Virus record (IMG/VR): IMGVR_UViG_3300045988_163070 | Reading direction: 5' to 3' (one strand) | DNA from: a virus | DNA: 64,000 nucleotides | In this document: in pieces, positions 8,754 to 48,900 of the stretch | How positions within the stretch are numbered: the first letter of the stretch is position 1 | How the letters are laid out: each line of letters starts with the position of its first letter | Notes under the pieces: generated by a model | What the model was told of the DNA's origin: nothing | The model's input: the letters and a program-made list of their open reading frames with translations, nothing else | The model's database searches: none | Position numbers and translations under genes: made by a program

Positions 8754-8755
8754 CT

Positions 8756-9457: not shown

Positions 9458-9462
9458 GCTCT

Positions 9463-12786: not shown

Positions 12787-13115
12787 TGTTTCTTGTTTTT
12801 TGAATTTCTTTTATTATTGACCTCTGACAAGCACATACGGCACCAGGAAGAAAGGGAATGGTAAATTTTTCCGTTTCTGTTAACAAACCTGTCATAAAAT
12901 CTATTTAAGTAGAAATAATTACCGCACCGGGTACACATTTTCATTTCACTTCCGGAAGAATCATACATATGATTACGAGGTTTACGATGAATAAGCGTAC
13001 ACCCTCTACATCCAGCATCTTCTCCACGATACCGGCGACAATGCGAAAGGGATTTTACTCCACATTTCGCAAAGTTCCGGCAGTCTATCCGAACTTCCGA
13101 CCGAATAACACTCAT
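12771..13115 (-). CDS. hypothetical Cys-rich (zinc-ribbon-like) protein
   Basis: Multiple CxxC-type pairs (CRGC, CTRCGNYF, CRMC). Overlaps its neighbours by a few nt, consistent with an operon. Confidence 0.45.
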   Translation of the reverse strand: MSVIRSEVRIDCRNFAKCGVKSLSHCRRYRGEDAGCRGCTLIHRKPRNHMYDSSGSEMKMCTRCGNYFYLNRFYDRFVNRNGKIYHSLSSWCRMCLSEVNNKRNSKNKKQWVFQ

Positions 13116-13900
13116 GATTGTTCAATAGTGGATAACAATTCTTTAGCTCGGCTAATCTGCCGACGATTAAGATATGATTGCCAGCATTTATTATACCGGG
13201 ACCAGCGAAAAGCATTATACTTCAGTTGGTCTCGAATGTCCTCACTTGGAACACCACTGAAGAATAATTGTAAGCGGTTATCTTCTGTATTCTCAACAAC
13301 ACGAACATCATTGATTACGTACTCCTTTGTTTCAGTTTCTTTCAACTTCTTGGCTTTCTCCAAACGCAATTTTGCATCCCTGATTCTTGCGTTGTTATTG
13401 GTGAGCATATAAGAAGGGAAACCATAACCGTACATAGCAGGTTTTGTAAGTTCAATCGCTTTCTCTTCTGAAAATCCCATTCCCTGCAATTGTTCAACTT
13501 TTGCAACATCATTAAGTTTCTTACTCCGAAGTACTTTATTAGCTGCCTTCATCATGCTTTGAGATTTTTCTAACGCATCTATTTTTTCCTGCAGACGGTC
13601 TACTGCATCATCATCTTCAAGATAGATATTGTTATTGTTCTCAGCTGCTTCAGCCTTTCGTTCAAAATACTCAGCTTTCTCTTCCAATTTAACGGATTTT
13701 CCTATAGCATTCCAAGAGCGATCTAAAAGATTACGATGTGATCTTTCTGAATGATGCCCTACGAGTATAGGCTGTCCTAAAGGGATATGTTCAACCATCT
13801 TGTGGCTCTGATCATAGACTTTAGTCGACTGGCATCTTGCCTTTCCTGCCAGTTCTCTGTATCTATCAGCTCTGGCCTCTTGTTTTTCTTTTCTGTTCAT
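13112..13900 (-). CDS. DUF3560-like protein
   Basis: IPLGQPILVGHHSERSHRN matches the GQPILVGHHSE signature I associate with DUF3560 proteins of phages and plasmids. Confidence 0.5.
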   Translation of the reverse strand: MNRKEKQEARADRYRELAGKARCQSTKVYDQSHKMVEHIPLGQPILVGHHSERSHRNLLDRSWNAIGKSVKLEEKAEYFERKAEAAENNNNIYLEDDDAVDRLQEKIDALEKSQSMMKAANKVLRSKKLNDVAKVEQLQGMGFSEEKAIELTKPAMYGYGFPSYMLTNNNARIRDAKLRLEKAKKLKETETKEYVINDVRVVENTEDNRLQLFFSGVPSEDIRDQLKYNAFRWSRYNKCWQSYLNRRQISRAKELLSTIEQS

Positions 13901-13948
13901 AATTTTACATTACTTTGGTTTGACTTATATAAAACTGAAAGACCACAG

Positions 13949-14524
13949 CTACTTTGCCATGGTCTTATCATTAAATAATTTCGGTTCACCGATAGGAACC
14001 AGGTCATCAAACAGACCGGGAACACGGGGAATTAATGCTTCATATTCCTCACGAAAAAACTCAATTTTCGTACGCCCCTGTTTTTTACCCTTCCTGGTAT
14101 GTACATCAAAAGTATAGGGAGGAATAGGTATAGGGTAACGCCTAACATCCTCTATCCATTTCTCTATGTCCACATCTCTTCTGTCATAAATGAAGTTCTG
14201 CAAATGATCTGCATCCCGGTTTTTCCTGCATTCACAAAGAAGAATAACCGCTTTGCTGACAAATATCCGCCCCTTGGGTTCAGTAGCATTCTTGTTTACC
14301 AATTCATGACCTTGCCACAATGCTTCTATCTCTTTTGTTATGATACCGAAGCAATCTTCTGCACTAATGGTATATAAACGCTTCCACACATAGTCGCGGT
14401 ATCCACTCGCCCATAATTCCAATGCAAAAAAGCCGGCTACCCCGGTATCGGCTCGCCGGATCGCTTTTTGCATTGCAGAACTCACCTCGAAGAAATCATA
14501 TCCGCAAATTGTTCTAATAATCAT
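13949..14524 (-). CDS. stand-alone MgsA/RarA C-terminal-like domain protein
   Basis: FEVSSAMQKAIRRADTGVAGFFALELWASGYRDYVWKRLYTISAEDCFG resembles the MgsA_C helical domain (SA..KS.RGSD...A.yW...EDiG). No AAA+ domain is present. Confidence 0.5.
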   Translation of the reverse strand: MIIRTICGYDFFEVSSAMQKAIRRADTGVAGFFALELWASGYRDYVWKRLYTISAEDCFGIITKEIEALWQGHELVNKNATEPKGRIFVSKAVILLCECRKNRDADHLQNFIYDRRDVDIEKWIEDVRRYPIPIPPYTFDVHTRKGKKQGRTKIEFFREEYEALIPRVPGLFDDLVPIGEPKLFNDKTMAK

Positions 14525-14550
14525 AATTTTAATTTAATGATTTGATTTTT

Positions 14551-14622
14551 AATTGATTACATCAGTAAATTTAGCTAAAAAAGGCGGATATAGCAAACAG
14601 ATTGAACGCCATTTAAACGCCT
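14551..14622 (-). promoter_or_regulatory. conserved promoter cassette, copy A (TTTG-N20-TAAATTTA plus upstream AATGGCG-type direct repeat)
   Basis: Minus-strand -33 TTTG (plus caaa 14594-14597) and -7 TAAATTTA (14566-14573), spaced by 20 nt. Shares ttacatcagtaaa and gcaaac..cgccattt.a.cgcc with copies B and C. Confidence 0.55.
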
Positions 14623-14634
14623 TTTTACAAGTTA

Positions 14635-15387
14635 TTAGAATTTGAATTTGCAGGATATATTATACTGTACAAGCTGCTTTGTCTTGTCCTTTCCGTTGTT
14701 AGTAGCACTCTTCAGGAGAATGCTATCACCAAAACTTTTCTTGATGAAAAGAATGGATCTACGCTCCTCTTCTTGGTTCCTGATTGAGGAAAGGCCACCG
14801 GCATTTATGAAAGTATTCTTTTGCTCAAAGTTATACCGTAAATCAGTCAATATCCGGCGCTCTTTATACTTCATGTAACAGGATATCCAAAAATCTTCTT
14901 TTAAACGGATTTCCTCATTCCACCAGGTATTTTTATTGTAAATTACTCCATAACTGCAACCGGTTATCATTTTTGAGAGAGAAAGAAAAGCTGATTCGTC
15001 ATACATCACAGGTGATATCCGGGAAGTGAAACCAAAGAGATGAACATCCATCATACTGGCCATCTCAAATAACGACTGAATGATATTAGTGATTCTATCC
15101 TTATCTTTCACACGCCCCGGTTCTCCCTTTTCGGCACAGATAGCTTTACAGGCGTGCACATCATCGTCTATCATGAAGAGTTCACCAAAATATTTCGCCA
15201 TCCAGTTACGTTTAGGTATAAGGCCGATTATATCGTCTGGGTGCGTTACGATCTCACATTCCGGATTAAACTGCTGATATAAGTCTGCCTGACTCTCAGC
15301 AACACAAATAATAGGATCATTCACCAATTTTTTAGCAAACACCCGGTCATGGCGCTTATGACTTGGTATTACTATTTTGCAGGGCAT
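14635..15387 (-). CDS. putative GT-A-fold glycosyltransferase (possibly DNA-base glycosyltransferase, TAGT-like)
   Basis: KIVIPSHKRHDR near the N-terminus, DxD-like FMIDDDVH, and later LKEDFWISCY...NAGGLSSIR. From memory this pattern resembles TET/JBP-associated glycosyltransferases. Not verified by search. Confidence 0.4.
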   Translation of the reverse strand: MPCKIVIPSHKRHDRVFAKKLVNDPIICVAESQADLYQQFNPECEIVTHPDDIIGLIPKRNWMAKYFGELFMIDDDVHACKAICAEKGEPGRVKDKDRITNIIQSLFEMASMMDVHLFGFTSRISPVMYDESAFLSLSKMITGCSYGVIYNKNTWWNEEIRLKEDFWISCYMKYKERRILTDLRYNFEQKNTFINAGGLSSIRNQEEERRSILFIKKSFGDSILLKSATNNGKDKTKQLVQYNISCKFKF

Positions 15388-16018
15388 GACGGACGTCTTT
15401 TATATCAACAACATTACTCTTACTTATTTTCCCAGTTTTATAGGACTTCATGTGCTGCATATCCAGTCTTTCACGAAGCCAGTTACTATCAACTTCATTA
15501 CTTGAGGTAATGATGAATAGCTCATGCTTTTCATCATATTTGGGAATAAGAGGATAGATAGCTGTATCATCTGTGATCGTATCAAACCGCTCTTTAAATT
15601 CGTCCTCTTTCTTTTCAGGATTAAACTCGATCCCCCATTCCTGAAGTTCAGACTTATTCCACTCATTTTCCATAGCGTCCATATCATTCTCACCAAAATT
15701 GACATTATCCTTTGTAGCATACTCTCTAAGCTTCTTCACTGGAGTATCAGATGGCAAAACCTTACATGGAAGTTCTTTGTATCCAAGTTCCTTACAAGCA
15801 CGTAAACGGAGATTGCCACAAACAACAATATACCGGCCATCATTATAGGGAAATATTATAAGCTCTCTAAGTTCAAGCATTTCAGGCGAATCCTGAATAC
15901 TTTTCTTCATCGCTTCAAAGCGATAATCACGGAAAAAGCGCGGATTTTTCGGTAATCCCATGAGCTGCCCCTTATTAAAATCAAGTAGGCATACTTGAAT
16001 TGTCTCTGTCATAACCAA
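15356..16018 (-). CDS. ParB-like nuclease (ParB/Srx) domain protein
   Basis: GLPKNPRFFRDYRFEAMKKSIQDSPEMLELRELIIFP...YIVVCGNLRLRACKELGYKELPCKVL matches the ParB N-terminal domain pattern. Confidence 0.7.
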   Translation of the reverse strand: MVMTETIQVCLLDFNKGQLMGLPKNPRFFRDYRFEAMKKSIQDSPEMLELRELIIFPYNDGRYIVVCGNLRLRACKELGYKELPCKVLPSDTPVKKLREYATKDNVNFGENDMDAMENEWNKSELQEWGIEFNPEKKEDEFKERFDTITDDTAIYPLIPKYDEKHELFIITSSNEVDSNWLRERLDMQHMKSYKTGKISKSNVVDIKDVRHALQNSNTKS

Positions 16019-18093: not shown

Positions 18094-19809
18094 TCAGGCT
18101 TCCTCTGTATTATCGTTATCAAGATCCTTTAATCGATCATTGAGTTTCTTTTGCTTTTTCTCCAATGAAGCATTTAGTTTTTTTCCTAATGCAAAGTACT
18201 CATCAGGATATTGTTCGTGGAACAGAATATTTTGGCATTTTTGCATATACGGATAAAACATCACATCATTAGCAGAAAGACTATTTGCGATGAAAGCCCG
18301 ATACCATTGATCCCGATCAGCTTTATTATTTTTGACGTATTCGACAAAATCTGATTTTTTATCGTACCTGCTTAATTGCAAGGTTTTCAGGTAGCCATCA
18401 TCGCAACTACGCAGAACCATCACATCAAAAACTGTCTGTTCATCAATAGAAAGCTCCTTTTTACGCTGAAAGTATGGCTTTTCTTGCGCCCATTTGCGCA
18501 TTTCCTCAGCGCTTTTCTCAATGACAATTTCTTTATTCCTCTTTAACTGAGCTTTTATTTTCTCACGTTCTATTTCTTTAACATCTGCAACTGCTGTAGT
18601 TCCAGAAGCAATATCTTTTCTAACATAGTAGAAATTAACTTTAAATTCCGGATAATAATAGCCAAAGAATGAGATACATCGATAAACATCGCCATCATCA
18701 ATCATTTTCAAAATACGTTCATCATCTTCCGAATACCAGCACTGCCCTTTAAAAACTTCATCCGGATTGACCACTGTAAACCCAAGTTGTTTAACAGCGT
18801 CTAAAGTACTTTCATACTGCTTCTTTTTTTCATCACTCCAATAAGAATCAACTTTTGCAACAATTACTGTTTTTCCGAATGAAAGAGGTTCACCTACCTT
18901 TACAAGATTTTCACTTTCAAGCAGAATCTTCCGAACTACATACGCAATCCGCTTTTTATTAAAACAAGTAGCATTAATACACCGGGCGTCTTTATTGTTC
19001 ATCTCATAGAATAGACAACCATGATTACAGGTATTAGATTCACATTGAGAACATGGTTTAAATTCTCCATTTTCCCAATTATCAGCCTCCTCTTCAATCC
19101 AATCGGCTTTTTTAAGTTCCATAAAAGAATTACTCACATAATCCCGAATCATAGCGGTCGTGCATTGTTCATCTTCTTCCTCATGAAACTCTTTTTGAGT
19201 TTCTTCGTCAAGTTTTGAAAGAATCATTGCACCGGATAATGGGATATCTCCATTTCTTACACGTTCTTTCAGTTCCGGAATAAGACTATTTAGCTTTATA
19301 CGATCAAAGACAAAACGAGCAGACTTTCCAAATTTAAGGGCAATATCCTCATAACTACGCCCTCTCTCTGACAGCTGCGCAAAAGCAAAAGCTTCTTCGA
19401 TGGGATCGACATCTTTTCTTTGAAGATTCTCAGTAATCATTGCATCGAAAGCCTCGTCATCTGTCATCTCTCTGACAATGCAAGAAATTGTTTGAAACCT
19501 TTCTGACTTTTTACGATGTGCCTTGATTTTAGCAGTATTCTCTTCATCTTCCTTTGCTTTCAAGAGTGATACAGCACGGAAGCGGCGCTCACCGCAAACA
19601 ATTTCATACGAACAGGGGATTGTTGTGACATCTCCTGTTTCCAAGTCAGTAAAGTCCTCGGATTTAGCTACCCTAACGGTTATAGGCTGCAATAAGCCTT
19701 GTTTCTCAATGTTATTTGCAAGCTCTTTCAGAGCTGCTTCATCAAAAGTCTTTCTCGGATTCAAAGGAGAAGGACTGATAAGGTCAATTCTAATGTTTTG
19801 TACTTCCAT
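18094..19809 (-). CDS. large ParB N-terminal-domain protein
   Basis: LISPSPLNPRKTFDEAALKELANNIEKQGLLQPITVR...YEIVCGERRFRA is a canonical ParB box, followed by a 450-aa C-terminal extension. Confidence 0.75.
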   Translation of the reverse strand: MEVQNIRIDLISPSPLNPRKTFDEAALKELANNIEKQGLLQPITVRVAKSEDFTDLETGDVTTIPCSYEIVCGERRFRAVSLLKAKEDEENTAKIKAHRKKSERFQTISCIVREMTDDEAFDAMITENLQRKDVDPIEEAFAFAQLSERGRSYEDIALKFGKSARFVFDRIKLNSLIPELKERVRNGDIPLSGAMILSKLDEETQKEFHEEEDEQCTTAMIRDYVSNSFMELKKADWIEEEADNWENGEFKPCSQCESNTCNHGCLFYEMNNKDARCINATCFNKKRIAYVVRKILLESENLVKVGEPLSFGKTVIVAKVDSYWSDEKKKQYESTLDAVKQLGFTVVNPDEVFKGQCWYSEDDERILKMIDDGDVYRCISFFGYYYPEFKVNFYYVRKDIASGTTAVADVKEIEREKIKAQLKRNKEIVIEKSAEEMRKWAQEKPYFQRKKELSIDEQTVFDVMVLRSCDDGYLKTLQLSRYDKKSDFVEYVKNNKADRDQWYRAFIANSLSANDVMFYPYMQKCQNILFHEQYPDEYFALGKKLNASLEKKQKKLNDRLKDLDNDNTEEA

Positions 19810-27210: not shown

Positions 27211-27303
27211 TATTGGTTTGACTTTTAGTTTATTACATCAGTAAAGTTATCGTTAAATGACGAAGTTAGCAAACGGAAACTTCGCCATTTTAGCGCCATT
27301 TTT
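27211..27303 (-). promoter_or_regulatory. conserved promoter cassette, copy C
   Basis: -33 TTTG (plus caaa 27270-27273), 20-nt spacer, -7 TAACTTTA (27242-27249). Upstream direct repeat cgccattttagcgccattttt (27283-27303). Confidence 0.6.
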
Positions 27304-27751
27304 ATAATGGGTAATATGGAGTTCTTGGTTCTCTCCCATTACTCAAGTCAAGTGTGCGATAGTCGTTCAGAAGCTGCTTACTGAAATTAATTACACGTAA
27401 GCATGTGATTTCTGAAAACATCCCAATATGGGTATAATCAGAAGGTAGATCAAGCATTCTTGAAAGCCATGCGTAAGCTTCAGTTTTTTTCATGTAACCA
27501 AGCTCCCAAATCTTATCGAAATACTCGTGAGCTTGATGCTTCATTTTACGAAGTGGCCTTCGTGCAACTCTTCCTAATGCTCTATTAGTACCCTTGTGAA
27601 CTCCTACATATGCATCACATCCAGAACACAAATAGATCATTCCGTATGACCTTCGATAAACAACAGAACTATCGACAAACTCTGTTGGATTACCGCAATA
27701 TGGACATATCTTCCCAGCGATAATTAGTTTTTGTCTTTCGGTTAATTCCAT
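27302..27751 (-). CDS. zinc-ribbon protein (DUF3268-like)
   Basis: CPYCGNPTEF...YLCSGCDAYVGVHKGTNRALGRVA...LRKMKHQAHEYFDKIW. Confidence 0.5.
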   Translation of the reverse strand: MELTERQKLIIAGKICPYCGNPTEFVDSSVVYRRSYGMIYLCSGCDAYVGVHKGTNRALGRVARRPLRKMKHQAHEYFDKIWELGYMKKTEAYAWLSRMLDLPSDYTHIGMFSEITCLRVINFSKQLLNDYRTLDLSNGREPRTPYYPL

Positions 27752-27767
27752 AATAATACATTAATTG

Positions 27768-27850
27768 TGGACGGTAGAGGAATCGAACCCCTCCCACTCG
27801 TTTTGAATTGGTTGCGCAACACGAAGCTCTAACCGATAAGCTAACCGTCC
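27768..27850 (-). tRNA. tRNA-like gene with normal acceptor, D and T arms but a 10-12 nt insertion in the anticodon arm
   Basis: RNA GGACGGT-TA-GCTT..GAGC...AGGGG-TTCGATT-CCTCT-ACCGTCC-A. Between the stem halves TTCGT/ACGAG lie 19 nt (GTTGCGCAAC CA ATTCAAA). The last 7 nt would form a loop with U33 and anticodon UCA. Confidence 0.5.
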
Positions 27851-27943
27851 GAGGAAAGATATACTATCCTCACGAACCGTACACCTTGAATTAAAACACA
27901 AATACAAAACTACATGATACTATTAATCACCTTCATGGGTTTG

Positions 27944-28106
27944 CGAAGTAGAAAGGAGTCGAACCTCTAAACTTTGCAACAGGATTTTTCGTTTCAGTGT
28001 CTGATTGTGCATATGTGGGGATTTAATAGTTTGATTTTCCCACTCGTGATGCTATTCGTGCATTGTCACCACTGAAACTAAGCGTCTACCATTCCGCCAC
28101 TACTTC
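27944..28106 (-). ncRNA. tRNA-like RNA (tRNA-Leu-like D arm, T arm and 7-bp acceptor) carrying a ~70-nt insertion closed by a 9-bp helix where the anticodon arm should be
   Basis: Acceptor GAAGTAG/CTACTTC, D region GGCGGAATGGTAGACGC, T arm AGAGG-TTCGACT-CCTTT. Helix GTTTCAGTG (28070-28078) pairs with CACTGAAAC (27991-27999). I could not fold a 5-7-5 anticodon arm. Confidence 0.45.
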
Positions 28107-28192
28107 ATTTCGTTGCCAGCCGCTGCTGGCAACTTTGATTGATTTGATTAAAATATTAACCTTTGATTGATTTCACCCTCACGGGCTACTTG

Positions 28193-28324
28193 TGCCAAGA
28201 GACGGATTCGAACCGCCGACCTCTGCTTGTGGTGCTCTCCCGTTGAGCTAAGAGTATTTCTTGAGAGACTCGAACTCCCAACCTTCCACCACACACAGCG
28301 CTCTATCCACTGAGCTATCCAAGC
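28193..28324 (-). ncRNA. composite double tRNA-like element: two D arms and two T arms, no complete anticodon arm, halves joined by a 12-position helix
   Basis: 5-prime unit: GCTTGGA-TA-GCTCAGTGGATAGAGC...GGGAG-TTCGAGT-CTCTC. 3-prime unit: GCTCAACGGGAGAGC...GGCGG-TTCGAAT-CCGTC-TCTTGGC. CTGTGTGTGGTG (28287-28298) pairs with CACCACAAGCAG (28223-28234) at 11 of 12 positions. The outermost ends pair at 6 of 7 positions. Confidence 0.45.
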
Positions 28325-28391
28325 AAATGCCCGGATTTTTATTCCGGGCTAATCTAATCACAAACGTTAAAATCATCCTCACGGACTTTCG

Positions 28392-28503
28392 TGCAAGTCC
28401 CGGCATCGAACCGAGAAGAAAGCCACTTTCCAGAAAACTAACACCTAAACAAAAACTATATGGCAAACGACCTATTATAAAACTGGAAAGCCCTTATCTT
28501 GCA
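28392..28503 (-). ncRNA. tRNA-like minihelix RNA (acceptor plus T arm) with an internal 8-bp helix and no recognisable D or anticodon arm
   Basis: T arm CTCGG-TTCGATG-CCGGG. TGCAAG (28498-28503) pairs with CTTGCA (28392-28397). Helix CTTTCCAG/CTGGAAAG (28483-28490 with 28426-28433) encloses 49 nt. Confidence 0.35.
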
Positions 28504-28513
28504 TCCTTGAATA

Positions 28514-28699
28514 CTATTCCTTTTTAGAAATTTTCTCCTCGTATACACCTCGGAACACATACATAAGAAATACCATTATAATAATGATCACAGAAGCTGT
28601 ATACTCTTTATAACTGGCATTTATGCCATCCCCTAACCAAATTGCCGCCCAAATGCCAACAATAGAAACTACATTTTGAGAAATTCTTAATGCTTTCAT
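28514..28699 (-). CDS. small membrane protein
   Basis: 61 aa with two hydrophobic segments (VVSIVGIWAAIWLG, SVIIIIMVFLMYVF). Confidence 0.35.
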   Translation of the reverse strand: MKALRISQNVVSIVGIWAAIWLGDGINASYKEYTASVIIIIMVFLMYVFRGVYEEKISKKE

Positions 28700-29010
28700 C
28701 TCTTAGATTTTTTGCTACGTTTACTTTTCTTGTTTGAGCACTTGCAATGCAGCAACACCTGAGCTGCATTGCAACGCCACTTCCCATTTTGTTTATTGAC
28801 AGGTTTATCGCTATCAATTTTACCTGCCTCAATAAGACTGATCAACTTCTTTTCACCCCCTACTATATATGCTGATTTATCTTTTCCAAATGCCTCTGAT
28901 GACATTATACGGAGTATATTATCAAGCAAAATCATAGCCATTCCAGGTGTGATAATATATCCGCGAAGAATGGATATATTATCGCTTTCTTGTAACAGTG
29001 ACGATCCCAT
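28696..29010 (-). CDS. hypothetical protein
   Basis: 104-aa ORF with a basic C-terminal tail; 4-nt overlap with the downstream ORF. Confidence 0.4.
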   Translation of the reverse strand: MGSSLLQESDNISILRGYIITPGMAMILLDNILRIMSSEAFGKDKSAYIVGGEKKLISLIEAGKIDSDKPVNKQNGKWRCNAAQVLLHCKCSNKKSKRSKKSKR

Positions 29011-29286: not shown

Positions 29287-29684
29287 ATGAATAATGAAGA
29301 AAAAGTAGTTTCAAACTACAAAGAAACTTTAGAGAAAAAATTGAATGGACTTTCAGACTCCAAAGTAATCTACTGACAATTGCATCCGCTACTTTCGCTG
29401 TACTGGTTTCTTTAAGCAATCTTTCAACAAACAACGATTGCAGTCGAATTTTACTATTGGTGGTAGTATGTTCAAACGCACTATCCATCCTTTTTTCGTG
29501 TATAACCATATACGAGAATCGAGCAATGAGCAACGTGATGATACGCAACGCTCAAAAACAGGTAGAAGAATATATCCTCTATAGCTTATACAATTCCAAA
29601 ATGACCGCAACGCCAGCCGTACCACGCAAGAAGTTCTTCGTAGCTTGTGAATCAATTTCTTACATTTCATTTTTACACCTTTGA
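29287..29684 (+). pseudogene. frameshifted small membrane-protein gene (or sequencing error)
   Basis: ATG 29287 gives MNNEEKVVSNYKETLEKKLNGLSDSKVIY then TGA. The -1 frame continues as ...LLTIASATFAVLVSLSNLSTNNDCSRILLLVVVCSNALSILFSCITIYENRAM... to the stop at 29684. Confidence 0.3.
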
Positions 29685-30307
29685 TTTATATTTATTCTAT
29701 TTTACACTAAAAAAAATCAGATTCAATATTTTCCAAAACGATTGCACTTAGTTGTTTCATCCAATTTCAATTGCTGCCGACGGAACTTATTTATCGCCCA
29801 TTTCTCAGTTTTTTAGAACGACAATATTTTTTGCCAATTGGACAGTAGTAGTAATGTCATATACCAGTTCCTGTATATGACTCTTTCATATCTTTATAAG
29901 AAAATTCATTTATCTCAGCCGAATAGACTGGCTGCAACAACTGAAAGATGAAATCGGTGAACCAATCATACGAACATCCGATCTTTAGAATAAACAAGTG
30001 GAATTTATCGGGCAGGAAGAGATCTTCGACACACCGACTGTCTTCATAGAGCTCATACCCCTGAAATTGAGCAGCCACGAGGAGTTGGTAGAGGATATCT
30101 CCGACTATATCTACCTGGCAACAGAAAATATCAAAACAGAGTGAGCTGCGCCTGCGATTCTTGTTGCTGACGGATGACACCAGGCTCGGTGCTGACGTTG
30201 ATCAGGGTGTAAGATGTCTTTTCGCCAATAGAGTATTTGGGCAAAATATAGCGGTGAAGTATTTCACGGTTACTCAAACCGTCTCTGGCGTGTTCGTCAT
30301 AGGTGCA

Positions 30308-30347
30308 TTACAAAATAAATACCCTCAATGAAAATCCAATTGAGGGT
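30308..30347 (-). terminator. intrinsic terminator after the 32.5-30.4 kb cassette
   Basis: 9-bp hairpin ACCCTCAAT...ATTGAGGGT (30321-30347), followed on the minus strand by atttattttgt. Confidence 0.6.
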
Positions 30348-30399
30348 ATCTATATGCATTTATTTATTATAAAAAATAGCAATAATATATTATCCTAAT

Positions 30400-32532: not shown

Positions 32533-32546
32533 AATTCTTAGATATT

Positions 32547-32645
32547 CATGCAGAGTGCGCCCACAGCCGTTATAAAGCTGAAACCGATTTTACGATTTAC
32601 ACTCTACATGAATAGATTATAACATTATTGGGCATCGCAAATATA
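32547..32645 (-). promoter_or_regulatory. TATATTTG -7 box plus structured 5-prime leader of the 299-aa gene
   Basis: Minus-strand TATATTTG (plus caaatata 32638-32645). An 11-bp leader helix forms between CATGTAGAGTG (32600-32610) and CACTCTGCATG (32547-32557), with one G-U pair, enclosing about 40 nt. Confidence 0.45.
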
Positions 32646-32758
32646 TGAATTTCCAATAACTATGAACTATTTTTTACTTAAAATATACTTTCTCCATTTA
32701 TTTTCTTTCTGTATTAATTTGACGATTTACGCAATTCACAAAATTTTCATTTAACTTG

Positions 32759-32833
32759 AAGTGATGGGCGGACTCGAACCGCCGACCTCATGCATATTAA
32801 GACATGCGCTCTAACCAACTGAGCTACACCACC
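32759..32833 (-). tRNA. tRNA with an apparent 8-nt anticodon loop (CUUAAUAU); identity undetermined
   Basis: GGTGGTG-TA-GCTCAGTTGGTTAGAGC-G-CATGT-CTTAATAT-GCATG-AGGTC-GGCGG-TTCGAGT-CCGCC-CATCACT. All four stems pair, but the best anticodon stem leaves 8 loop nucleotides. Confidence 0.7.
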
Positions 32834-33137
32834 TGCTATATCTACTTTTTTTTAACTCACATAACTCTTAAAGCAAATACCACGATTTGCCGACATAAAT
32901 ATGCCTAACTGTTTTATTTTTACAACGATATGGTTCTGACCTTTAACCACAGCATTATATCGTTGTCAAGTTGTGCCTATTTACGTAGTCCGCTTTCAGC
33001 AGAGGATAACTTGCAACCTCTATTTTTACCAATATGTCAAAGAACTCTTCTCTGTGTTCCCAGCCTCCCTTCAAGGGCAGGCTCACTGGCCGGGCTGGGT
33101 GCCGGTTAACCGGCTATCTTGGTTTGACTTAGTGAGG

Positions 33138-40647: not shown

Positions 40648-41130
40648 TTATTGATATAAACTTAGATCAACAGCATCTTTCTTTTTCCAACCAGCAGCTA
40701 ATGTGCGCTGAACAAAAACCATTTCCTTAGTATAAAAGTCCGTCAGATTTTCCAAGGTATTAAATTCATAGTAGACAGGTTCATCATCTGTTCCAAATTT
40801 AAATCTTACTGGTAAAGAGGTACCGTCTGTCTGCACTGCAAGATCATAGGCTGATTTATAATTGAACTGGTTTTCCTGTGATAACCATACAGGTATGCCA
40901 TTATAGGTAAATCCGGACATGATCTCGTTATTTATCTCCTGATTATACCAGTTAATAACCATAACCTTTACCTCCTCACTGGTAGGCTTATAAGAGAACT
41001 CCTCTTCCATATAGGAAGCATTTCCCTCTTGCTCACTTGGCTGTACATCCCAACGTACACGCCACTTATTTTTCACCGGATTTACACACTCAAAGAGCGA
41101 TACACCGGAACTTCCTTCTACTCGTTTCAT
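40648..41130 (-). CDS. hypothetical protein translationally coupled to the DGR RT (possibly DUF4376/XkdW-like)
   Basis: Its ATG overlaps the RT stop (TAATG). GFTYNGIPVWLSQENQFNYKSAYDLA loosely resembles DUF4376 tail-associated proteins. Confidence 0.4.
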   Translation of the reverse strand: MKRVEGSSGVSLFECVNPVKNKWRVRWDVQPSEQEGNASYMEEEFSYKPTSEEVKVMVINWYNQEINNEIMSGFTYNGIPVWLSQENQFNYKSAYDLAVQTDGTSLPVRFKFGTDDEPVYYEFNTLENLTDFYTKEMVFVQRTLAAGWKKKDAVDLSLYQ

Positions 41131-42446
41131 TAGCTAAATACATATTTTGTTCGACCTTTACCGAACGTCTCCGTCTTAATCGTTGTTTCAAACGGAAAAC
41201 CATCCGGCATACTTGAAATTTGTTGGAGGATATTTTTCATTTCCTCCGAATTGGTGAAGAACTTCTTCATTTCACCATTTTGCTCAATTGAGACAATACA
41301 ACGGTCTTCTCCCTGCTCTGTTTTAATACCCATTTCATAATCTTTCACTATGATAGGGAGATTTACCAATTCTCTTATGGAAACAACTGTGCCTGGAAAA
41401 CGCTTCTTCCCGTCTTCCGGCTTGTAAGTGACGTTTAAATCTTTGAAACTTTTCATTTTTATGCCTGTTAATTTATAAAATAGATTCTTGCAATCGGCAT
41501 GCTTTACCAAGCCATAAAAAGAGGCAATGAGTTCTTTACGACGTCTACGGCTTTTCACTTTATGAAGCCTACGAGCAAAGTTCTGTTTGTTCCTTTTGCG
41601 TACACGGGTATGATCCGGATAAATAACGAAGCCTAAGAAATCAATACCTTGCTTGGTTGGAAATACACGTTCAATCTTTTTAATCACAAGATTTATCTTA
41701 GCCACCTGCAGACACACAATATTACGCATCTTCCAAAGAACTTTTTTGCTCCCATTCAAAACACGCCCGTCGTCACAATACCGGAAATAGTGCTTCACGC
41801 CTTCCCGGTCCTTCAGGACATGGTCGATAAAAATGGATAACAGAAGATTACCAAGCCCCTGCGAACTTCTTAATCCTATGCTTATTCCCTTTTGCATCAC
41901 GTCCACGAATCCGGAAAGTAGCTGAATGAGCTTATTATCCTTAAACACCTTATTAACACAGTATTTCATAAAATCATGATCAACATTCTCATAAAATTTA
42001 CGAATATCAAAAGTGTAACAGAACTCTGTTCCTTGTGCATCATTCCCTATCGAATCACGTACATAACATAATAGATCGTGTGTACCACGTCCTTTTATAG
42101 ATGCAGATGTAGTCCGGATAAAACGACCTCGCAAATGTTCATCTACAACTTTCATAATTGCATGCACAGCAACCCGTTCTTTCAAAGAAAAAATTTGGAT
42201 GCGACGTAGTTTACCACCTTCAAAGACCTCCTTTTCAAAAAAATTACTAACTTTAAAACTGCCATTACGAATCCTTTCTGTCAATTCGTCAATGACTTCT
42301 TTTTTATGCGCAATAAGAGTTCTCCCTGAACGGCTGCGTTTACGTTTCCGACCTCGCAACACTGTCCAGAAAGACTCTTCCATATTTTCAGGAGTTATTA
42401 TCTCCTCAATGATATTGCCTTCTCTACGCATAATTTTTGCCTTCAA
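41130..42446 (-). CDS. DGR-type reverse transcriptase
   Basis: RT motifs ISIGLRSSQGLGNLL (the I/LGxxxSQ hallmark of DGR RTs) and FRYCDDGRVL (YxDD). The likely true start is ATG 42429-42431 (MRREGN...); the listed start is a TTG. Confidence 0.85.
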   Translation of the reverse strand: MKAKIMRREGNIIEEIITPENMEESFWTVLRGRKRKRSRSGRTLIAHKKEVIDELTERIRNGSFKVSNFFEKEVFEGGKLRRIQIFSLKERVAVHAIMKVVDEHLRGRFIRTTSASIKGRGTHDLLCYVRDSIGNDAQGTEFCYTFDIRKFYENVDHDFMKYCVNKVFKDNKLIQLLSGFVDVMQKGISIGLRSSQGLGNLLLSIFIDHVLKDREGVKHYFRYCDDGRVLNGSKKVLWKMRNIVCLQVAKINLVIKKIERVFPTKQGIDFLGFVIYPDHTRVRKRNKQNFARRLHKVKSRRRRKELIASFYGLVKHADCKNLFYKLTGIKMKSFKDLNVTYKPEDGKKRFPGTVVSIRELVNLPIIVKDYEMGIKTEQGEDRCIVSIEQNGEMKKFFTNSEEMKNILQQISSMPDGFPFETTIKTETFGKGRTKYVFS

Positions 42447-42651
42447 CTTTCTGGGCCCAACTTCTTCGAGAATCCCAATAAAGGGAAACCTACCAAACTC
42501 TACCCAACGATGTATGTTTCAGTTTTCCAGTCTTGCGACTGCTGTTACTGAGGCTCATCCCCCTCGGCTCAATGATGAGTAACTCGTACTCCTTATCGTA
42601 CGCCGATTAATTTCTTCAGGCACTAACGTCCAAATTCGTTTAAATTGTTTC

Positions 42652-42762
42652 CGAGCCGGGAACCGTTGTTCGCAGACGCATTCGATGAATCGTTACCGCA
42701 ATTCGCATACGAGACACCGCCGTTCGGGTTCGCGTTGTTGTTCGACCGAAAGACCACACGAG
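42652..42762 (-). repeat. DGR template repeat (TR)
   Basis: 111 nt, 105/111 identical to 43004-43114. The sense strand is rich in AAC/AAT codons (AAC AAC AAC GCG AAC CCG AAC GGC...). Confidence 0.85.
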
Positions 42763-42790
42763 TCTATGGGGGAATCCACCTACGGGGGTA

Positions 42791-42820
42791 CAAAATTAAC
42801 AATTTATTCATCTTGACAAA
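42791..42820 (-). promoter_or_regulatory. Bacteroides-type promoter driving the TR-RT transcript
   Basis: Minus strand TTTG (plus 42817-42820), 18 nt, then TAATTTTG (plus 42791-42798), about 30 nt upstream of the TR. Confidence 0.55.
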
Positions 42821-42843
42821 AGATTAAGTAAGTTATATTTTCG

Positions 42844-42891
42844 CCGGGCTTCGCCCGGATTTGTGCCGTTCGGGAAGAGCAGCACAAATCC
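42844..42891 (-). promoter_or_regulatory. two adjacent GC-rich hairpins just downstream of the fibre gene stop (terminator and/or DGR target-recognition structure)
   Basis: CCGGGC-ttc-GCCCGG (42844-42858) and GGATTTGTGC-N15-GCACAAATCC (42857-42891). Confidence 0.5.
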
Positions 42892-42935
42892 GAACATGGC
42901 TAAACGTTTTCCGATTTAGTCGCTTCGCTCCCGCT

Positions 42936-45900
42936 TTACGATTCCGATTTCAACGATTTGTACGCTTCAACGCTCTCCGCGACCTCGATTTGACCGCGGA
43001 AGGCGAGCCGGGAACCGTAGTTCGCAGACGCATTCGATGAATCGTAACCGCAATTCGGATACGAGACACCGCCGGGCGGGTTCGCGTTGCTGTTCGACCG
43101 AAAGACCACACGAGAAGCTGCTGCGCTCGGTTGGAATTCATCACAATAATAGGTTGTACTACTACCAGCCTGTGAAAAAGCAGCAATCACATCACAATAT
43201 TTTTGATGAACCATACCAGTTGCAAAACCACCGGTTGTACCGGAACGAACTTTACGTACCGTACCGTCAGGCATCTCAATATTTAACTTATACTGCTCTT
43301 GTGCATTAGTATTAGGTAAACCAACTTTATCCATCCATTCATATTTGTCACCATACCAACTTTCATAACCCATACAGTTACTTGAAGGAATACGAGTATG
43401 AACTATTCTACCATCGGCATCCTTTGAGATATACCAAGAATATTCAGTTTTATGCACACCATCTGAATCATAGCTTACAGTATCCTGCATACCGATTACG
43501 GCAGTAGTTCCGACTATCCGGTTATTTGTATTTTGACCATAACCGCATTGATCTTGTGCATCACGACGACCATATGCTGCATAGAACAAGTTAGCTACAT
43601 CTTTGTGCATCTCCCAGTCCACAAGTTGCAAATTACGTTGTTGTGCATAATAGTGAAAATCGGATTGAGACATACTACCAACACTTGCAGAAGTATTAAA
43701 AGCAGAATAAAGAGAATTACCAATAGAGATTGCTTCACCGACACCTGTCAGACAAGGCAGGTGTTCAACCCAATCCGGCTCCATATCCTCAATCTTGTCA
43801 CTGTTGGATAATACAACAAGGTCAAATTCTGCGTTATTGAAGATCGTGAAATAAAGGAAAGCAGCTCTTTCCGGAACGTCTGCAATAAGATACATTCCTT
43901 CAGCAAACTTATTGTTAAGACTCGGAACGGTCAAATCCTTTATAACATTACCGGATGCGTCTACGAAGATACTGCCAATCAAGCCGGTTCCTAACGTGGT
44001 CGGGAAACGGACACGCTTATGCTTGGAAACATCGACACCGCAAACACTATAATTCGTGTCTGAAGAATAGCTGTCCGTCAAGGTAGCACGACCAATCAGA
44101 ATCTTAGATTTCTCCTTATAAAGCCCGGATTCCCGGATATTGGAAAGATAAACTTTATCACATACCGGTATATCCGGAATTTCGGTATTGGAACTGTAAC
44201 AGGTGTACTTCTTGTTGTTAAGGTAGTCATTAATTCCTTTATACCAATAGTGAGGTTCATACATCCAAAGATCACCCTCCGTACTATCCAATTTGGCAGG
44301 AGTAGCACCGGATATTTTCTCTGAATCGGCATAATAATTAGAGTTCTCATCGTGTAGATTGCAAATCACCATTTTACCTTTCTCAGTCTGCTTACCTAAA
44401 ACACGATGACGTTTAGCCAGGATCTTAGTAATATGTCCGTTGGCTACATAGCTGTTACCGTATTTATAGCCGGTCAGATTGTCGAGGTTGCTGATATTAG
44501 CATCATCGGCAACAGTGTCATCAAACTCAATCATCGTATATTTAGGCTGAATGATGGTCAGCTCCGGGAAATGAGCAACGGCTGCTTCATATTCTTCATC
44601 AGTCATGGAACGGGTAAGACGATAGGTTCCCACCAGGCGACAGGAAGATACATTACCGCCATTCTCATCAACACCTCCCATTTCCATAAGGTTTCTAATC
44701 AGCGTACCGTCTCCTTCCATATCAATACCAGTAATACGAAGGTATCTGACAGCCGGACACGCTGTGAGCAGTCTTTGCCAGTCGATCAGTGCGCAACTAT
44801 CGACAACAAGGCGATTAGTATTAACCGTACCCTCTAATGTCAGATTGTCGTTAGATAATTTGTTCAAGTATCGTAATTCAAGCGTCTGAAGAGTAGCAGG
44901 AAGAACAGCAACGGACAAGGGAGAACCAGGTGCAAAAGATACTCCCGTTAATGCAGATTTACCAGCACGGAAAGTCTCAAGTTTGGAATTTGAAGATAAA
45001 TCCATAGAAGTAAAGTTTTCACTTTGCAACCCGGTAAGGTTCAACTCACGCAGATTCTTACACTTGTCAACTAAAAGTGCGTTCATGGTCTTTTGCGTAG
45101 CCGAACAACTGATATTCAAAACTCGCAATGCTACGCAATTGCTTAGATTTAGAGTACCGACAATAGCATGGCTAACATTAGTCAGATCAAGACCTAACAT
45201 ACGGGATGCACCGTAGAAGTATTGAGGATCATTGACTATCAAATCCGTGTCGAGCGTCAGTTCGACAATACTGCCGGCATCTTCAGCGAGCACACCACTT
45301 TGTTTCGGTTCGCCGGACGTGTACCCATAGCCGAAGTAATAACGTTCGCTGGCGGTTATCTTAACCTTACGCTTATCAGTAGAGAACTTATAACCAAAAT
45401 AGATAGGGAATGAATCCTGTCGGTATGTACCTGCAAGATATTGGCTATCCAAAAGAGCAAAACGGTTTTGGATCGTGAATGTACGGTGAGCGTAACGACT
45501 ACCTTGAAGGGCGTACAGGTAGTCATAGTATTTTGTACCCTCCGAAGTCGTAACACCCTCTGTTAAAGGCTTGATATACTTGTATTCTCCGTCCTTATTA
45601 TAAATCCTCTCGCACCAATTACCCATCAGTTGGTTATTGAAGATATCAAGTACATACTCGGTGCTCATATTACTACGGATATTCCCGGCAACTTCCTGCA
45701 ATTTCTCCGGCCAAGAGCGGACAAGTTTCCAAAGTATGGAGTCGTGACCGGCCATTGCATAGGAGCCAATAGAATCATCAAAGGTTTCCCATGTCATAGT
45801 ATAGTCATACTTCAGTACGGAGTCATTACGTCCGCCTAAAATCGTATCCATGTCATAAGGAAGAATATACCAGTGAACACCGTCCCAAGTGCAGAACATC

Positions 45901-48900
45901 ATGTTCTTTGCCCGGCTGTCAACAGCCATCAAATAGTCAGTGATTATGTACCAACCGAACAAGCTGTTTACATTAAAGTAATCGGCACATTCTGCACGGA
46001 ACCGGGCGGGGTCATTTTTTACCGAATTAATCCATGTCCAAAGGCGGGTTACAGCGTCTTTATCCTCTTGGTCGGCATCTTCCCATGTCTTATCCGGCTT
46101 AAAACGGAATTCCAAACCGTCAGCGAAGTTTTCAGCAGTTATGTTGGAAGTACCGAAGAGGCACAACGGATGAGAATTGTTCAAGAACTCAAGGCAGATA
46201 CATTTGTTACGGTCGCCATTCAAAGCGGCTAAATCATTGAATCCGGCAATACCTTCAAAACCGTAGACATTGTGAGAATCGCTCTTTTCGTTATTGAAAT
46301 TGTACTTACCCAAATAGGTATTTACACCGGTATTATCATTATCGTAGAACAAGTCCATCGGAAAACCATCAACACCGATACGAACACTGCCGTCTATTTC
46401 CTGTGGGGGTGTCAGCCAGCCACATTTCTTCCATGTGTCATTGACCAGTCTCACACCACCAGTATTGTGCGTTGATGATGAGTCGGAGAAATCAGCCTTC
46501 AAACAGAAAATACCCACACGTTTGGCGCCGGGTTTGAATGAATACATCAAGTCCGGAACATCGACACCATTCACTTCCAAAGTCGTTCCATATTTATCGA
46601 AACGTTCAAAGTAGATACGGTAGTTCTTTCGCGGATAGGTAGTAGACGATGTACCCTGTATCCGAAGTCCTGCATTACGAAGTACAAAATCATACTCCTT
46701 GCCATATGCAGAATAGAAATACACGTCAACAGGCACTTCAAACTTTTTGTTGTTCGTTGCATTAACAAGTTCGACATCACCAACAAAGCGCATGACAGAT
46801 TTACCTTGTACACGAAGCTTTTCTATATCCACATCCGAGCCGTCGTCATTCATAACATCGTTTTTCTGGAATAGAACAACCATTTCCTCTGATGTCGGAC
46901 GGTCTACCATGTAGTTGGTCAGCTCTTCATCATCAGTCAGACCACGCCGGTAGATACGCAAATTGCGCAACTCGATATCGGCTGCATCGGAAGATACAGT
47001 AATATTTACCGGAGCTTCCTGCTTCATACTTTCAGTCTGTGAGTACTGTTTCGCACCACAACGGATACCATTTACGTACAATTCTATCAAACGAGTACCG
47101 GACTTCTTGCCGATAACGAAAGCTATTTTCAGATTCAGATCGGAAGCAAAAAGTGTATTGACAGAACTTCCTCCGGAAGCGGTTATTTTCGCTTCCTGTG
47201 TTGTCATCTGGAATCCTATTCCACCGGACATACACGAAAGAATGACACCGTTACGATCAGTTACATTCGAACACTTCAATTCAAATTCATACGTAGCACC
47301 GTTCGATACGGCATCATTGGCAAGGGGTTGTTTAAGAATCTCTATTGTAGCTCCATTAGTTAACTGCAAAGAGTCACCAGTCCAACCATTACTATTCCAA
47401 TCAAACCCGGTAAACTTGGTTGTTACCTCGCCATCAGTCCAAACTGCCGGATTTTCTTCGGTGTTACTACGACCGGCAGCCGAAAGTTTTAAATCAAGGT
47501 CTGCTTGTACTTCCTCGATATCAATAGAGGATTTTGCAACGTGGACTAAGAAATCATATTCAGTGTTGCCGCAAGAGAACCGCATTGCATACTCTCCCTG
47601 CTCGGTGAACCGGTTTGTATATACCTGAACGGTACGCGGCACACTTACTGTCTGTGTTTTGGTGCCATTGTTGTACACGGACATTTCAGCAGGGGTTTTG
47701 CTCGGATCGTAAACAACAAAATCGAATTGCAGTTTCTCATATTGACCGACTTCAAGGCGTGGTGTCAAATGATCATCCGTAAAGATGCGGCCGTCCGGGA
47801 AGCGATGCATCATGCCGATACTGGGAGCAGAAGAACCCTCTTTGAATATATCCAAGTAGATACTTTCAGAGCGAACGGTAAGATCGGCAGAAGCTTCCAT
47901 TTCAGCAACCATCTGCACGGTATGCCGACCAGGTAAAAGGTCAGACATGGAAATACTGAAGCTGCTGTTCGTTTGCCCGGATTTAGTAATAGTCTTGGAG
48001 TCTTTCTGAACACCATCAACATACAACATGACAACTTTGTTGCCTGTTCCCGAAATGGTGAACGGAATGGATGCAGTTGCACCGGCTGCATAGCCGCCAA
48101 CAGGAGAAGCAATGTTATAAGTAGAACTCAAAGATAACGTAATAACTTTGACGGACGTGTATGCCTGTTTAGTCTGCTTCTTGCCTTCCGGATCGGTAGT
48201 TGTTGCCTTTACATAGATATCCGTTGTTCCCAAAAGCAAATACTTACTCAAATCAAGGGTATATGTACCCTTAGATACATCGTTAATAGTCTCTGTGTAC
48301 ACAGTTTGAGCACCTCGAAGCATCTGTATGGTAAGCGTAGCTTTCTGCCCAGTAGATTCGCCCTTGTCATCTCCGGAACTATATTGGTGATCGTAGAAAT
48401 AGGTAAGATGAGAAGAACCACCCTCTTTGATAATGCTGTTATCTACCGAAGCATTGAGGACAATCTTTGTTGCAGTACCGGTTTCTCCGCCGCCACCGCC
48501 TGTACCGCCTTGAAATTCCGTACTGGCTATTTCTGCACCGGACTTGTTTTTCAAACTTAGCTTAACAGTATTATTATCCTCGTCAACCTCGGATTCGAGT
48601 GTGAAAACAGTATTGGCTTCAATCTCATTAAATTTAGCAGTTACAGGAGCGTTCTGAATGGCATTTGTTGAGTTGGCATCCAAACTTTCATCTGTTTGAG
48701 GAATTTCGACATTGAAAGATACACCACCACTTTCATCCGGAGTATGCTTTTCACCGTTGAAAGTAATTTCTTTCACAGCTCCTGCACCACCGTATTCATT
48801 CCAAGCAGCCGGCTGATCGAAAGCTGTTATGTCGTTTGATTCAAAACGATAATCTTTCCATTTCCCAGCAGACTCCTCGAAAGTAATAATCATGCCGGGC

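Follow-up and report, generated by a model that had tools for sequence, protein, structure and literature searches.

The stretch of viral DNA analysed here, 64,000 nucleotides (nt) of the IMG/VR record IMGVR_UViG_3300045988_163070 (hereafter the window), is that of a temperate Bacteroides-type phage or prophage, with genes for a portal protein, terminases, a tail tape-measure protein, an integrase and a diversity-generating retroelement. Positions 27768-28503 hold a tandem array of units that resemble transfer RNA (tRNA) genes. It is flanked by small early genes and by the genes for a DUF3268 protein, an Erf-like annealase, a RecE-like exonuclease and SSB, and its units share the minus strand with these early recombination genes; all array features below are on that strand. 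An earlier reading made from the letters alone (the sequence-only reading) had described the block as four tRNA-like genes in which the anticodon arm is replaced by long helices. This description was borne out by the Rfam tRNA model, which skips the anticodon region, and by ARAGORN. Rfam was searched with the whole window at the gathering score, with positions 27400-28900 (1.5 kb) at E ≤ 10, and with 30 related loci; in these searches nothing except tRNA scored above threshold at the units.

The units share a tRNA core, in which the acceptor stem has 7 bp, U8 is present, the D arm contains GG, the loop of the T arm reads UUCRA, and an invariant C comes after the discriminator base. The position of the anticodon loop is occupied by a structured module, which is different for each family. 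Units 1 to 3 are certain members of the array, while the membership of unit 4 is doubtful.

Unit 1 (27768..27850) is an 83-nt tRNA-like RNA on a type-I scaffold (GGACGGU UA GCUU..GAGC), recognised by Rfam, by ARAGORN and through its homologues. The Rfam tRNA model matched it with 39.9 bits (E=6e-5 for the window) and skipped 19 nt between the halves of the anticodon stem, the same 19 nt that the sequence-only reading had counted there. ARAGORN in default mode reported it as 'tRNA-???' with a 4-base 'anticodon'. The extended anticodon arm carries the conserved sequence GUUGCGCAACCAAUU. The discriminator A is at 27768 and C74 at 27767, and the 3' end of the unit is separated from the ATG of the DUF3268 gene by 16 nt.

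Unit 2 (27944..28106, 163 nt; family U2a) has a tRNA-Leu-type scaffold and was characterised by our own scan, blastn and covariation. According to the scan, the acceptor stem is paired at 7 of 7 positions, the D arm is of the Leu type (GCG GAAUGGUAGA CGC) and a T arm is present. The D arm had already been called Leu-like, and the other predicted features of this unit were also found: a 9-bp helix (GUUUCAGUG/CACUGAAAC) that encloses about 70 nt, including a GUGGG...CCCAC hairpin. Enclosed by the long helix (28070-28081 with 27988-27999), positions 28000-28069 form a 70-nt module of two hairpins, the loops of which are predicted to be able to kiss (GAAUAG with CUAUU). A small hairpin with a UUGCAA loop (27971-27983) takes the position of the variable arm. 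The Rfam tRNA model missed unit 2 in the window; the homologue in LoVEphage was matched with 29.5 bits. A possible tag frame resembling that of transfer-messenger RNA (tmRNA), GCA CGA AUA GCA UCA CGA GUN .. UAA, was seen by eye in unit 2 of the window and of LoVEphage, but was dropped because it begins inside a conserved stem and had no other support.

Unit 3 (28193..28324, 132 nt; family U3), established by Rfam and covariation, consists of an outer tRNA with acceptor stem, D arm and T arm, into which a second body is set. It was matched by the Rfam tRNA model with 39.0 bits and a skip of 70 nt. The sequence-only reading was right about the two D arms, the two T arms and the outer ends (6 of 7 positions paired). 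For the anticodon-side strands, where it had counted 11 of 12 paired positions, the present count is 10 of 11, around one G.A mismatch. The anticodon stem is extended as an 11-bp helix (28288-28298 with 28223-28233) in which this mismatch is invariant. The inner module (28234-28287) is a closed tRNA-like body with the order T arm, 4-bp capped hairpin, D arm. Unit 3 is therefore composed of two tRNA bodies, with two elbows, that are joined via one shared 11-bp anticodon-stem helix and have a single open acceptor end.

Unit 4 (28392..28503) was proposed from folding. As had been described, there is a T arm (CUCGG UUCGAUG CCGGG), together with a terminal helix of 6 bp and an internal helix of 8 bp (CUUUCCAG/CUGGAAAG). 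Four tRNA units had been claimed, and the claim held for units 1 to 3, on their cores and on covariation, and is doubtful for unit 4. This unit lacks a D arm, is an exception to the C74 rule and is not matched by the Rfam tRNA model at E ≤ 10. Its homologues are near-identical copies and one sequence at 82% identity; none of them shows compensatory changes, and the diverged homologue has an uncompensated mismatch in the internal helix.

A fifth tRNA-like gene, t5, is located outside the block, at 32758..32833 on the minus strand (Rfam tRNA, 59.2 bits; ARAGORN 'tRNA-???'). It has a perfect tRNA core and an 8-nt anticodon loop, CUUAAUAU.

ARAGORN in default mode found no canonical tRNA anywhere in the 64 kb; the only calls were two 'tRNA-???' entries with 4-base anticodons, at 27767-27850 and 32758-32833. 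A canonical anticodon arm, with a 5-bp stem and a 7-nt loop containing U33, an anticodon and a purine at position 37, was found in the units by neither ARAGORN in default mode nor Rfam. The claim that no standard anticodon arm can be folded thus held, and the ordinary cloverleaves that would have spoken against it were not returned. The acceptor stem, the D arm with G18G19 and the T arm with a UUCRA loop are present in units 1 to 3 and t5, judged on Rfam matches above the gathering score (positions 1-71) for units 1, 3 and t5 and on our own scan for unit 2. On other contigs, the Rfam tRNA model also reaches the gathering score on homologues of 98-158 nt, and skips the anticodon arm every time. 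The open reading frame (ORF)-free gaps at 29671-30399 and 32533-32929 gave no additional RNA family match.

The units are widespread. Pattern scans found the unit 3 core in at least 118 viral contigs, the unit 2 core in 39 and the U2 scaffold in 82. The unit 3 core was also present in 10 Bacteroides genomes of several species, including Bacteroides xylanisolvens XB1A, which carries it in a prophage. By blastn, unit 2 showed about 78% identity with LoVEphage and other Bacteroides/Phocaeicola phages, and unit 1 together with its upstream motif was matched to Bacteroides phage BS-TP2. One LoVEphage record labels the homologue of unit 2 as a two-piece 'tRNA-His/Undet'. No constant gene neighbour was found for U3 when the flanking ORFs of 78 loci were clustered.

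Comparison of related phage regions, suggested earlier as a check, revealed compensatory changes in units 1 to 3 and in t5. In an alignment of 33 distinct U3 sequences, 96.7% of the cells were paired and 11 pairs showed changes on both sides: all 7 acceptor pairs, 3 of the 5 pairs of the outer T stem and 1 pair of the long helix. This covariation score was reached by 0 of 500 shuffles, and slid registers did not come close either. Seven distinct U2a sequences were paired in 93.9% of the cells, and 12 pairs had changed on both sides; such pairs occur in the acceptor and T stems, in the long helix, and in both the small hairpin and the second hairpin of the insert. The second insert hairpin, for example, occurs as GUGGG/CCCAC, GUCAGG/CUUGAC, GUUGGG/CCCGAC and GUAAGG/CCUUAC. 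Unit 1 was represented by five distinct variants with compensated acceptor and T stems (acceptor stems GGACGGU/ACCGUCC, GGAUGGU/ACCAUCC and GGAUGAU/AUCAUCC). For the t5 family, 99.5% of the cells were paired and 8 pairs had changes on both sides.

These data bear on the possibility that the units are decaying pseudo-tRNAs or chance tRNA-like fragments without function. No anticodon is conserved, the folding z-scores are unremarkable and unit 4 looks degenerate, all of which would fit decay. However, compensatory substitutions are found in acceptor stems, T stems, long helices and insert hairpins, and the units are retained in more than 100 contigs and several Bacteroides species with near-invariant inserts and an invariant C74. 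The homologues are not one recent clone either, as their acceptor stems and flanks differ. Decay, which the sequence-only reading had listed and at the same time doubted on account of the extensive complementarities, is excluded for units 1 to 3 by covariation and wide conservation; for the array as a whole we give it hardly any credence. The features exceed chance, given the Rfam E-values, the conservation in more than 100 independent contigs and the covariation.

Another interpretation offered earlier was that the units are real tRNA genes with small unconventional introns, in which splicing would restore a 7-nt loop and the products would decode. In the window, unit 1 would then give a tRNA(UCA) that reads UGA, and unit 2 a tRNA-Leu(CAG). 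ARAGORN with intron search was applied to the window and to 46 homologues. For unit 1 it proposed tRNA(UCA) with a 12-nt intron and a tidy 7-nt loop; for unit 2, tRNA-Leu(CAG), again with a 7-nt loop and with a CAG repeat bordering an intron of 71 nt, a call that agrees with the Leu-type D arm; and for unit 3, tRNA-Thr(GGU). The two-piece annotation of the unit 2 homologue in the GenBank record of LoVEphage is in line with such a reading. However, anticodon, isotype and intron position varied among close homologues. The isotypes called were Ser, SeC, Arg or Asn for unit 1 homologues, Leu, His or Phe for U2a, Phe, Val, Ile or Leu for the related family U2b, and Thr, Val or Ala for U3. In U2a, an A-to-U change on the 5' strand is accompanied by a U-to-A change (alignment columns 35 and 112), which keeps the long helix of the unspliced RNA; on our reading, the same change would disrupt the A29-U41 pair of the spliced stem. 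The inserts (12-71 nt) are far shorter than any group I intron and gave no Rfam intron or ribozyme match at E ≤ 10. Relatives of t5 with loops of 4, 5 and 6 nt are beyond repair by excision. No splicing endonuclease, RtcB or RNA ligase was found among the approximately 50 window ORFs scanned, which include all nine of at least 400 amino acids (aa). Homologues do not share the same tRNA, covariation does not follow the spliced stem, and neither a known intron type (Rfam) nor splicing enzymes (window ORFs scanned) were found. The intron-bearing tRNA was rejected on the inconsistent calls between homologues and the compensatory change in U2a, and we consider it improbable.

What distinguishes the families is the module carried on the scaffold. 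Two scaffolds were recognised: a tRNA-Leu-type body, UGGCGGAAUUGGUAGACGC, with A73 in most cases (G73 in the window) and a total length of 96-176 nt, and a type-I body, GUAGCUCAGUUGGUAGAGC. U2a (163 nt) and U2b (146 nt) have a common scaffold and a closing helix with an invariant A.G mismatch, whereas their inserts are unrelated, though both structured. The inserts of 140 distinct long elements fell into 27 similarity clusters, a few of which are artefacts spanning two adjacent genes. Among the relatives of t5, the loop was filled with 4, 5, 6, 8, 14 or 96 nt. The t5 locus itself was found as an orthologous locus in three phages, whose upstream flanks are near-identical over about 100 nt and whose scaffold is the same, but which carry different fillings: an 8-nt loop in the window, a 96-nt insert in L003, and in L122 the inner module of unit 3, resulting in a U3-type gene. 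Related Bacteroides phages thus swap modules into one scaffold, with a same-locus swap demonstrated in one case.

Given the anatomy of the units, their conservation and covariation, the finding that no anticodon is conserved and their place in the early operon, we read the block as phage genes arranged in tandem, whose RNAs are modular, do not decode and use a tRNA as scaffold, and put the probability of this reading at roughly 85%, judged from sequence data. Decoding of codons by these RNAs is very unlikely. A number of observations weigh against this reading. The folding energy of the units is no better than that of shuffled sequence (z -0.4 to -1.8), and the proposed folds lie 2-7 kcal/mol above the minimum free energy. 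The inner module of U3, hairpin 1 of U2a and the kissing loops are near-invariant, so that their fold rests on likeness to tRNA; part of these near-invariant sequences had, moreover, been preset in the search patterns. Being nearly invariant, these insert parts offer covariation evidence neither way. To this must be added the tidy intron calls for units 1 and 2, the missing D arm and missing compensatory changes of unit 4, and the finding that the window ORFs scanned (Pfam, PHROGs) include no TROVE/Ro protein, RtcB, RNA ligase, CCA enzyme or synthetase.

All elements have the same signature at their 3' end. Position 74 was C in 156 of 156 distinct elements, short and long, and the next base was mostly A (N73-C-A-A, not CCA). 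C74 was not imposed by the scan. Its presence in both short and long elements fits a common route of 3' maturation.

Near the ends of the units, the sequence-only reading had noticed a recurring CGTGAGG. The recurrence is real: the copies at 27868, 28177 and 28377 are three of the six in the 64 kb (both strands), and the remaining ones fall inside ORFs. It had not been recognised, however, that CGTGAGG is a portion of a larger conserved leader element of tRNA and tRNA-like genes in these phages, which exists in two variants. Variant A is a hairpin that recurs across phages. In the window (27858..27885) it has the stem GGUGUA/UAUAUC and a 16-nt loop, CGGUUCGUGAGGAUAG, which includes CGTGAGG, and its 3' end is 7 nt upstream of unit 1. 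The consensus is a covarying stem of 5-8 bp with the 16-nt loop YSGUYYGUGARRAUMG, ending 4-10 nt before the tRNA-like 5' end. In dozens of distinct phage contexts, the element was found at a distance of 21-29 nt ahead of a tRNA-like 5' end.

Variant B has the consensus RUAGCCYGUGARGGUG; between this motif and the gene stands a separate hairpin with a small loop, whose end is 4-5 nt away from the gene. This arrangement precedes units 3 and 2 of the window; a motif search located UAGCCCGUGAGGGUG at 28174..28188, starting 5 nt past the 3' end of unit 3, and CCGUGAGGAUGA at 28373..28384, starting 7 nt past unit 4. The two spacer hairpins described earlier are both present in the sequence. One, GUUGCCAGC-AGCG-GCUGGCAAC (28112..28133), has its 3' end 5 nt before unit 2, and LoVEphage-type contigs have a hairpin of different but compensated sequence at the same place before U2a. 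The other, GCCCGGA-AUAAAAA-UCCGGGC (28329..28349), has its 3' end 4 nt before unit 3, and L009 and L010 have an analogous GCCCGG hairpin downstream of their variant B motif. The variant B consensus was also found 59-60 nt upstream of tRNA-like genes in L009, L010, L015 and L190. Of 124 distinct long elements, 48 were preceded by a loose form of the leader pattern, as were 5 of the 32 short ones. The leader element, present at many loci (e.g. L013 2375-2405, L128 and L126), is absent from Rfam. It may act as a signal for processing or for antitermination. The CGTGAGG motif was also compared by eye with the standard Bacteroides promoter (TAnnTTTG / TTTG) and did not fit it.

In a rival explanation, the tRNA-like bodies would serve as punctuation only, that is, as RNase P and 3'-processing sites at which an early polycistronic transcript is cut, with the excised RNAs having no role of their own. 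Such cutting would free spacer RNAs with a 5' motif and a 3' hairpin, and would give the DUF3268 mRNA a 16-nt leader. Just those parts that RNase P and RNase Z recognise (acceptor stem, T arm, elbow and C74) are kept in every family. The hairpins ending 4-10 nt upstream of most units would shield the new 3' end of the upstream fragment. Unit 1 ends just in front of the DUF3268 start codon, and arrays lie directly upstream of DUF3268 genes in many phages. However, the inserts are both structured and under strong conservation: the inner module of U3 hardly varies although 7 of 7 acceptor pairs have changed, and the U2a and U2b inserts show compensatory changes, all of which would be needless for punctuation. 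Three or four ORF-less units in succession also exceed the punctuation need of any operon. The strong conservation of the inserts indicates that punctuation is not the whole story, and as the sole function we regard it as unlikely. It is the main rival to the non-decoding array, with which it may nevertheless be compatible.

The DUF3268 zinc-finger protein gene (27302-27751, minus strand; PF11672, E=1e-40) is the gene next to unit 1. The AlphaFold model of its product, of very high confidence (predicted local distance difference test score, pLDDT, 96), consists of a zinc ribbon and a helical bundle; no sequence match was found in the PDB and no fold match among solved structures, and the model yielded no hint of function. 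Since tRNA-like arrays consistently occur upstream of DUF3268 genes, the array could be a cis-acting leader, a riboswitch or attenuator, that regulates this gene. An unrelated RNA, the DUF3268 RNA motif of Weinberg et al. (2017), studied as a k-junction and suspected to be a cis-regulator of DUF3268, occupies a similar position in other genomes (PMC10573300). It gave no Rfam match in the window or in the 30 related loci. U3 and U2a, however, also occur in neighbourhoods without an adjoining DUF3268 gene (the LoVEphage locus and many U3 loci), t5 sits 5 kb from the DUF3268 gene, and the tRNA core offers no hint of an expression platform. We therefore consider a cis-acting leader rather improbable.

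Some further observations were made at and around these loci. In L126, L142 and L200, about 46 nt separate the end of a small HNH endonuclease gene from the leader hairpin and U3 gene that follow it, an arrangement reminiscent of the homing endonucleases in phage tRNA clusters. Two features lie in the early region of L002 (BS-TP2): at 3375-3488 a second long tRNA-like element, which has an acceptor stem and a T arm and in which about 60 nt are inserted, and at 4027-4075 a DUF2693-FD RNA (RF02926, 75 bits).

Elsewhere in the window, the diversity-generating retroelement (41130-43114, minus strand) is associated with the ORF 42936-50501. Its parts are a reverse transcriptase (RT) gene (41130-42431), an RT-3 RNA (RF03068, 130 bits; 42452-42608) and a template repeat (42652-42762), and by these coordinates the RT-3 motif lies between the template repeat and the RT gene. 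The variable repeat (43004-43114) is 95% identical and lies close to the C terminus of a protein of 2521 aa in which CotH and Laminin_G_3 domains are present. At 7164-10299 (plus strand), on the strand opposite to the surrounding phage genes, genes for MotA/ExbB-like and OmpA-like proteins and a weak, sub-threshold HNH_3 match stand in a row; to judge from their sequences, the phage may carry a defence cassette of the Zorya type here. An extracytoplasmic function (ECF)-type sigma factor (Sigma70_r2 and r4_2) is encoded among the tail genes (57913-58386, minus strand). The genes at 13112-16012 and 18094-19809 (minus strand), which encode a TET-associated glycosyltransferase, a DUF3560 protein, a clear ParB-like protein and a weak, sub-threshold ParB_N match, may constitute a DNA-modification module.

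For the array itself, the explanation that we favour has two steps. In the first, the array would be transcribed together with the early operon, host RNase P and the 3' tRNA-processing enzyme would excise the units, and the CCA-adding enzyme would complete their ends. The outcome would be stable RNAs, and the ends of the flanking RNAs would be set at the same time. We consider this first step probable. The stable RNAs of phage T4 are matured by host tRNA-processing enzymes. Maturation by host tRNA-processing enzymes has likewise been reported for the Y-RNA-like RNA YrlA (PMC4201824). In the second step, the RNAs would stay outside translation, and the tRNA core and the inserted module would bind a protein. 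The most plausible form of this step would be to sequester or misdirect a host factor that binds tRNA, for example a tRNA-targeting defence nuclease or transferase. A decoy without an anticodon would be feasible, because there are defence nucleases that hit tRNAs away from the anticodon; Septu is described as cleaving the variable loop of tRNA-Tyr (PMC13096335). The decoy role is put forward tentatively, as one possibility. The explanation as a whole, in which a non-decoding tRNA-scaffold array is processed and acts via the inserted modules, appears to us the probable one, though less sure than the array itself.

More speculatively still, the arrays could form a modular 'tRNA display' system of temperate Bacteroides phages, in which a small set of scaffolds, processed and kept stable by host enzymes, presents interchangeable modules as RNA agents of counter-defence or host manipulation. 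If so, the host protein engaged would differ from module to module, unit 3 with its two tRNA bodies would serve as a bivalent decoy, and the arrays would be an RNA counterpart of the arrays of protein anti-defence genes in phage early regions.

The tRNA genes of phages are usually explained by codon usage or by the replacement of tRNAs that are cut by host defence nucleases. Here, widespread Bacteroides phages of the human gut keep, under clear selection, tRNA-shaped genes that are almost certainly unable to decode, in many versions whose difference is confined to what replaces the anticodon loop. This raises the questions of what use the tRNA body has outside translation, by which route modules are exchanged and which host proteins are engaged. 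It also poses an annotation problem, as pipelines miss these genes or call them intron-containing tRNAs of arbitrary isotype. In practical terms, the units offer natural, pre-tested tRNA scaffolds for the expression of structured RNAs in Bacteroides.

Several known RNAs invite comparison. One is YrlA (RF02553; Chen et al. 2014), which is non-decoding and has a tRNA-like body with a loop-capped acceptor end, the order T arm, hairpin, D arm, and an attachment through the position of the anticodon stem; some copies are phage-encoded, and some phages encode Rsr and YrlA together (PMC4201824). The array could accordingly be imagined as Y-RNA-like, binding Ro60/Rsr and tethering an exoribonuclease. 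The inner module of unit 3 follows the YrlA order; it is a closed tRNA-like domain in the register given by cmscan (28234-28287) and is conserved in 33 sequences. YrlA was also the sole non-tRNA response from Rfam (22.8 bits, E=0.055 in the 1.5-kb search). This score, however, is one third of the gathering score of 69. The helix of YrlA leads to the Ro60-binding stem formed by its 5' and 3' ends, and its gene lies beside rsr; the helix of unit 3 leads to a second, open-ended tRNA body with an acceptor stem in place of the Ro60 helix, and the window ORFs scanned contain neither an rsr gene nor a TROVE-domain protein. Units 1 and 2 have ordinary tRNA topology and do not resemble YrlA. A Y-RNA-like function has, in our view, only a slim chance of being correct.

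With tmRNA the units share an acceptor/T-arm domain and the replacement of the anticodon side by a long structured insert. Unlike the units, tmRNA lacks a full D arm, is charged via G3.U70, binds SmpB and carries a tag frame. ARAGORN found no tmRNA, the response of the Rfam model (RF00023) was limited to an 11-nt T-loop fragment of 6.6 bits, and the 3:70 pair of the units varies freely. The large structured RNAs GOLLD, ROOL and HEARO, of which the sequence-only reading had thought, gave no match in the window at the gathering score and none in 27400-28900 even at E ≤ 10, and that suggestion was abandoned. The DUF3268 RNA motif is a different RNA in a similar genomic position.

Group I introns are found in the anticodon loops of bacterial tRNAs, such as the cyanobacterial tRNA-Leu(UAA) and the tRNA-Ile of Azoarcus, and measure about 200 nt or longer. 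They resemble the units in the insertion at the anticodon loop and in the tRNA-Leu-type body. They differ in having a catalytic core and a conserved canonical tRNA, whereas the phage inserts comprise 12-96 nt and no anticodon is conserved.

A search of the literature revealed no description of these RNAs. Phage T4 has small stable RNAs, 'species 1' and 'species 2', among its tRNA genes, with which they are co-transcribed and matured by host tRNA enzymes. Like the units, they are small RNAs of no assigned function in a phage tRNA cluster; as far as we are aware, they are two single RNAs of one phage group, with no modular family and no double tRNA body known. The TMERs (tRNA-like/pre-miRNA units) of murine gammaherpesvirus 68 (MHV68) are viral tRNA-like bodies with hairpins that are not aminoacylated and from which host tRNA processing frees small RNAs; unlike the phage units, they are eukaryotic and driven by polymerase III. 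Finally, in the engineered tRNA scaffold of Ponchon and Dardel (2007), a foreign RNA is reportedly placed in the anticodon arm, and the chimera is said to be processed and stabilised as a tRNA. That scaffold is man-made, unlike the phage units, and we know of no natural bacterial or phage counterpart with many insert families. The units behave as known tRNA mimics do, but do not show the full set of defining features of any described family with which they were compared; the double tRNA body of unit 3 and the exchange of modules are the unusual features of this array.

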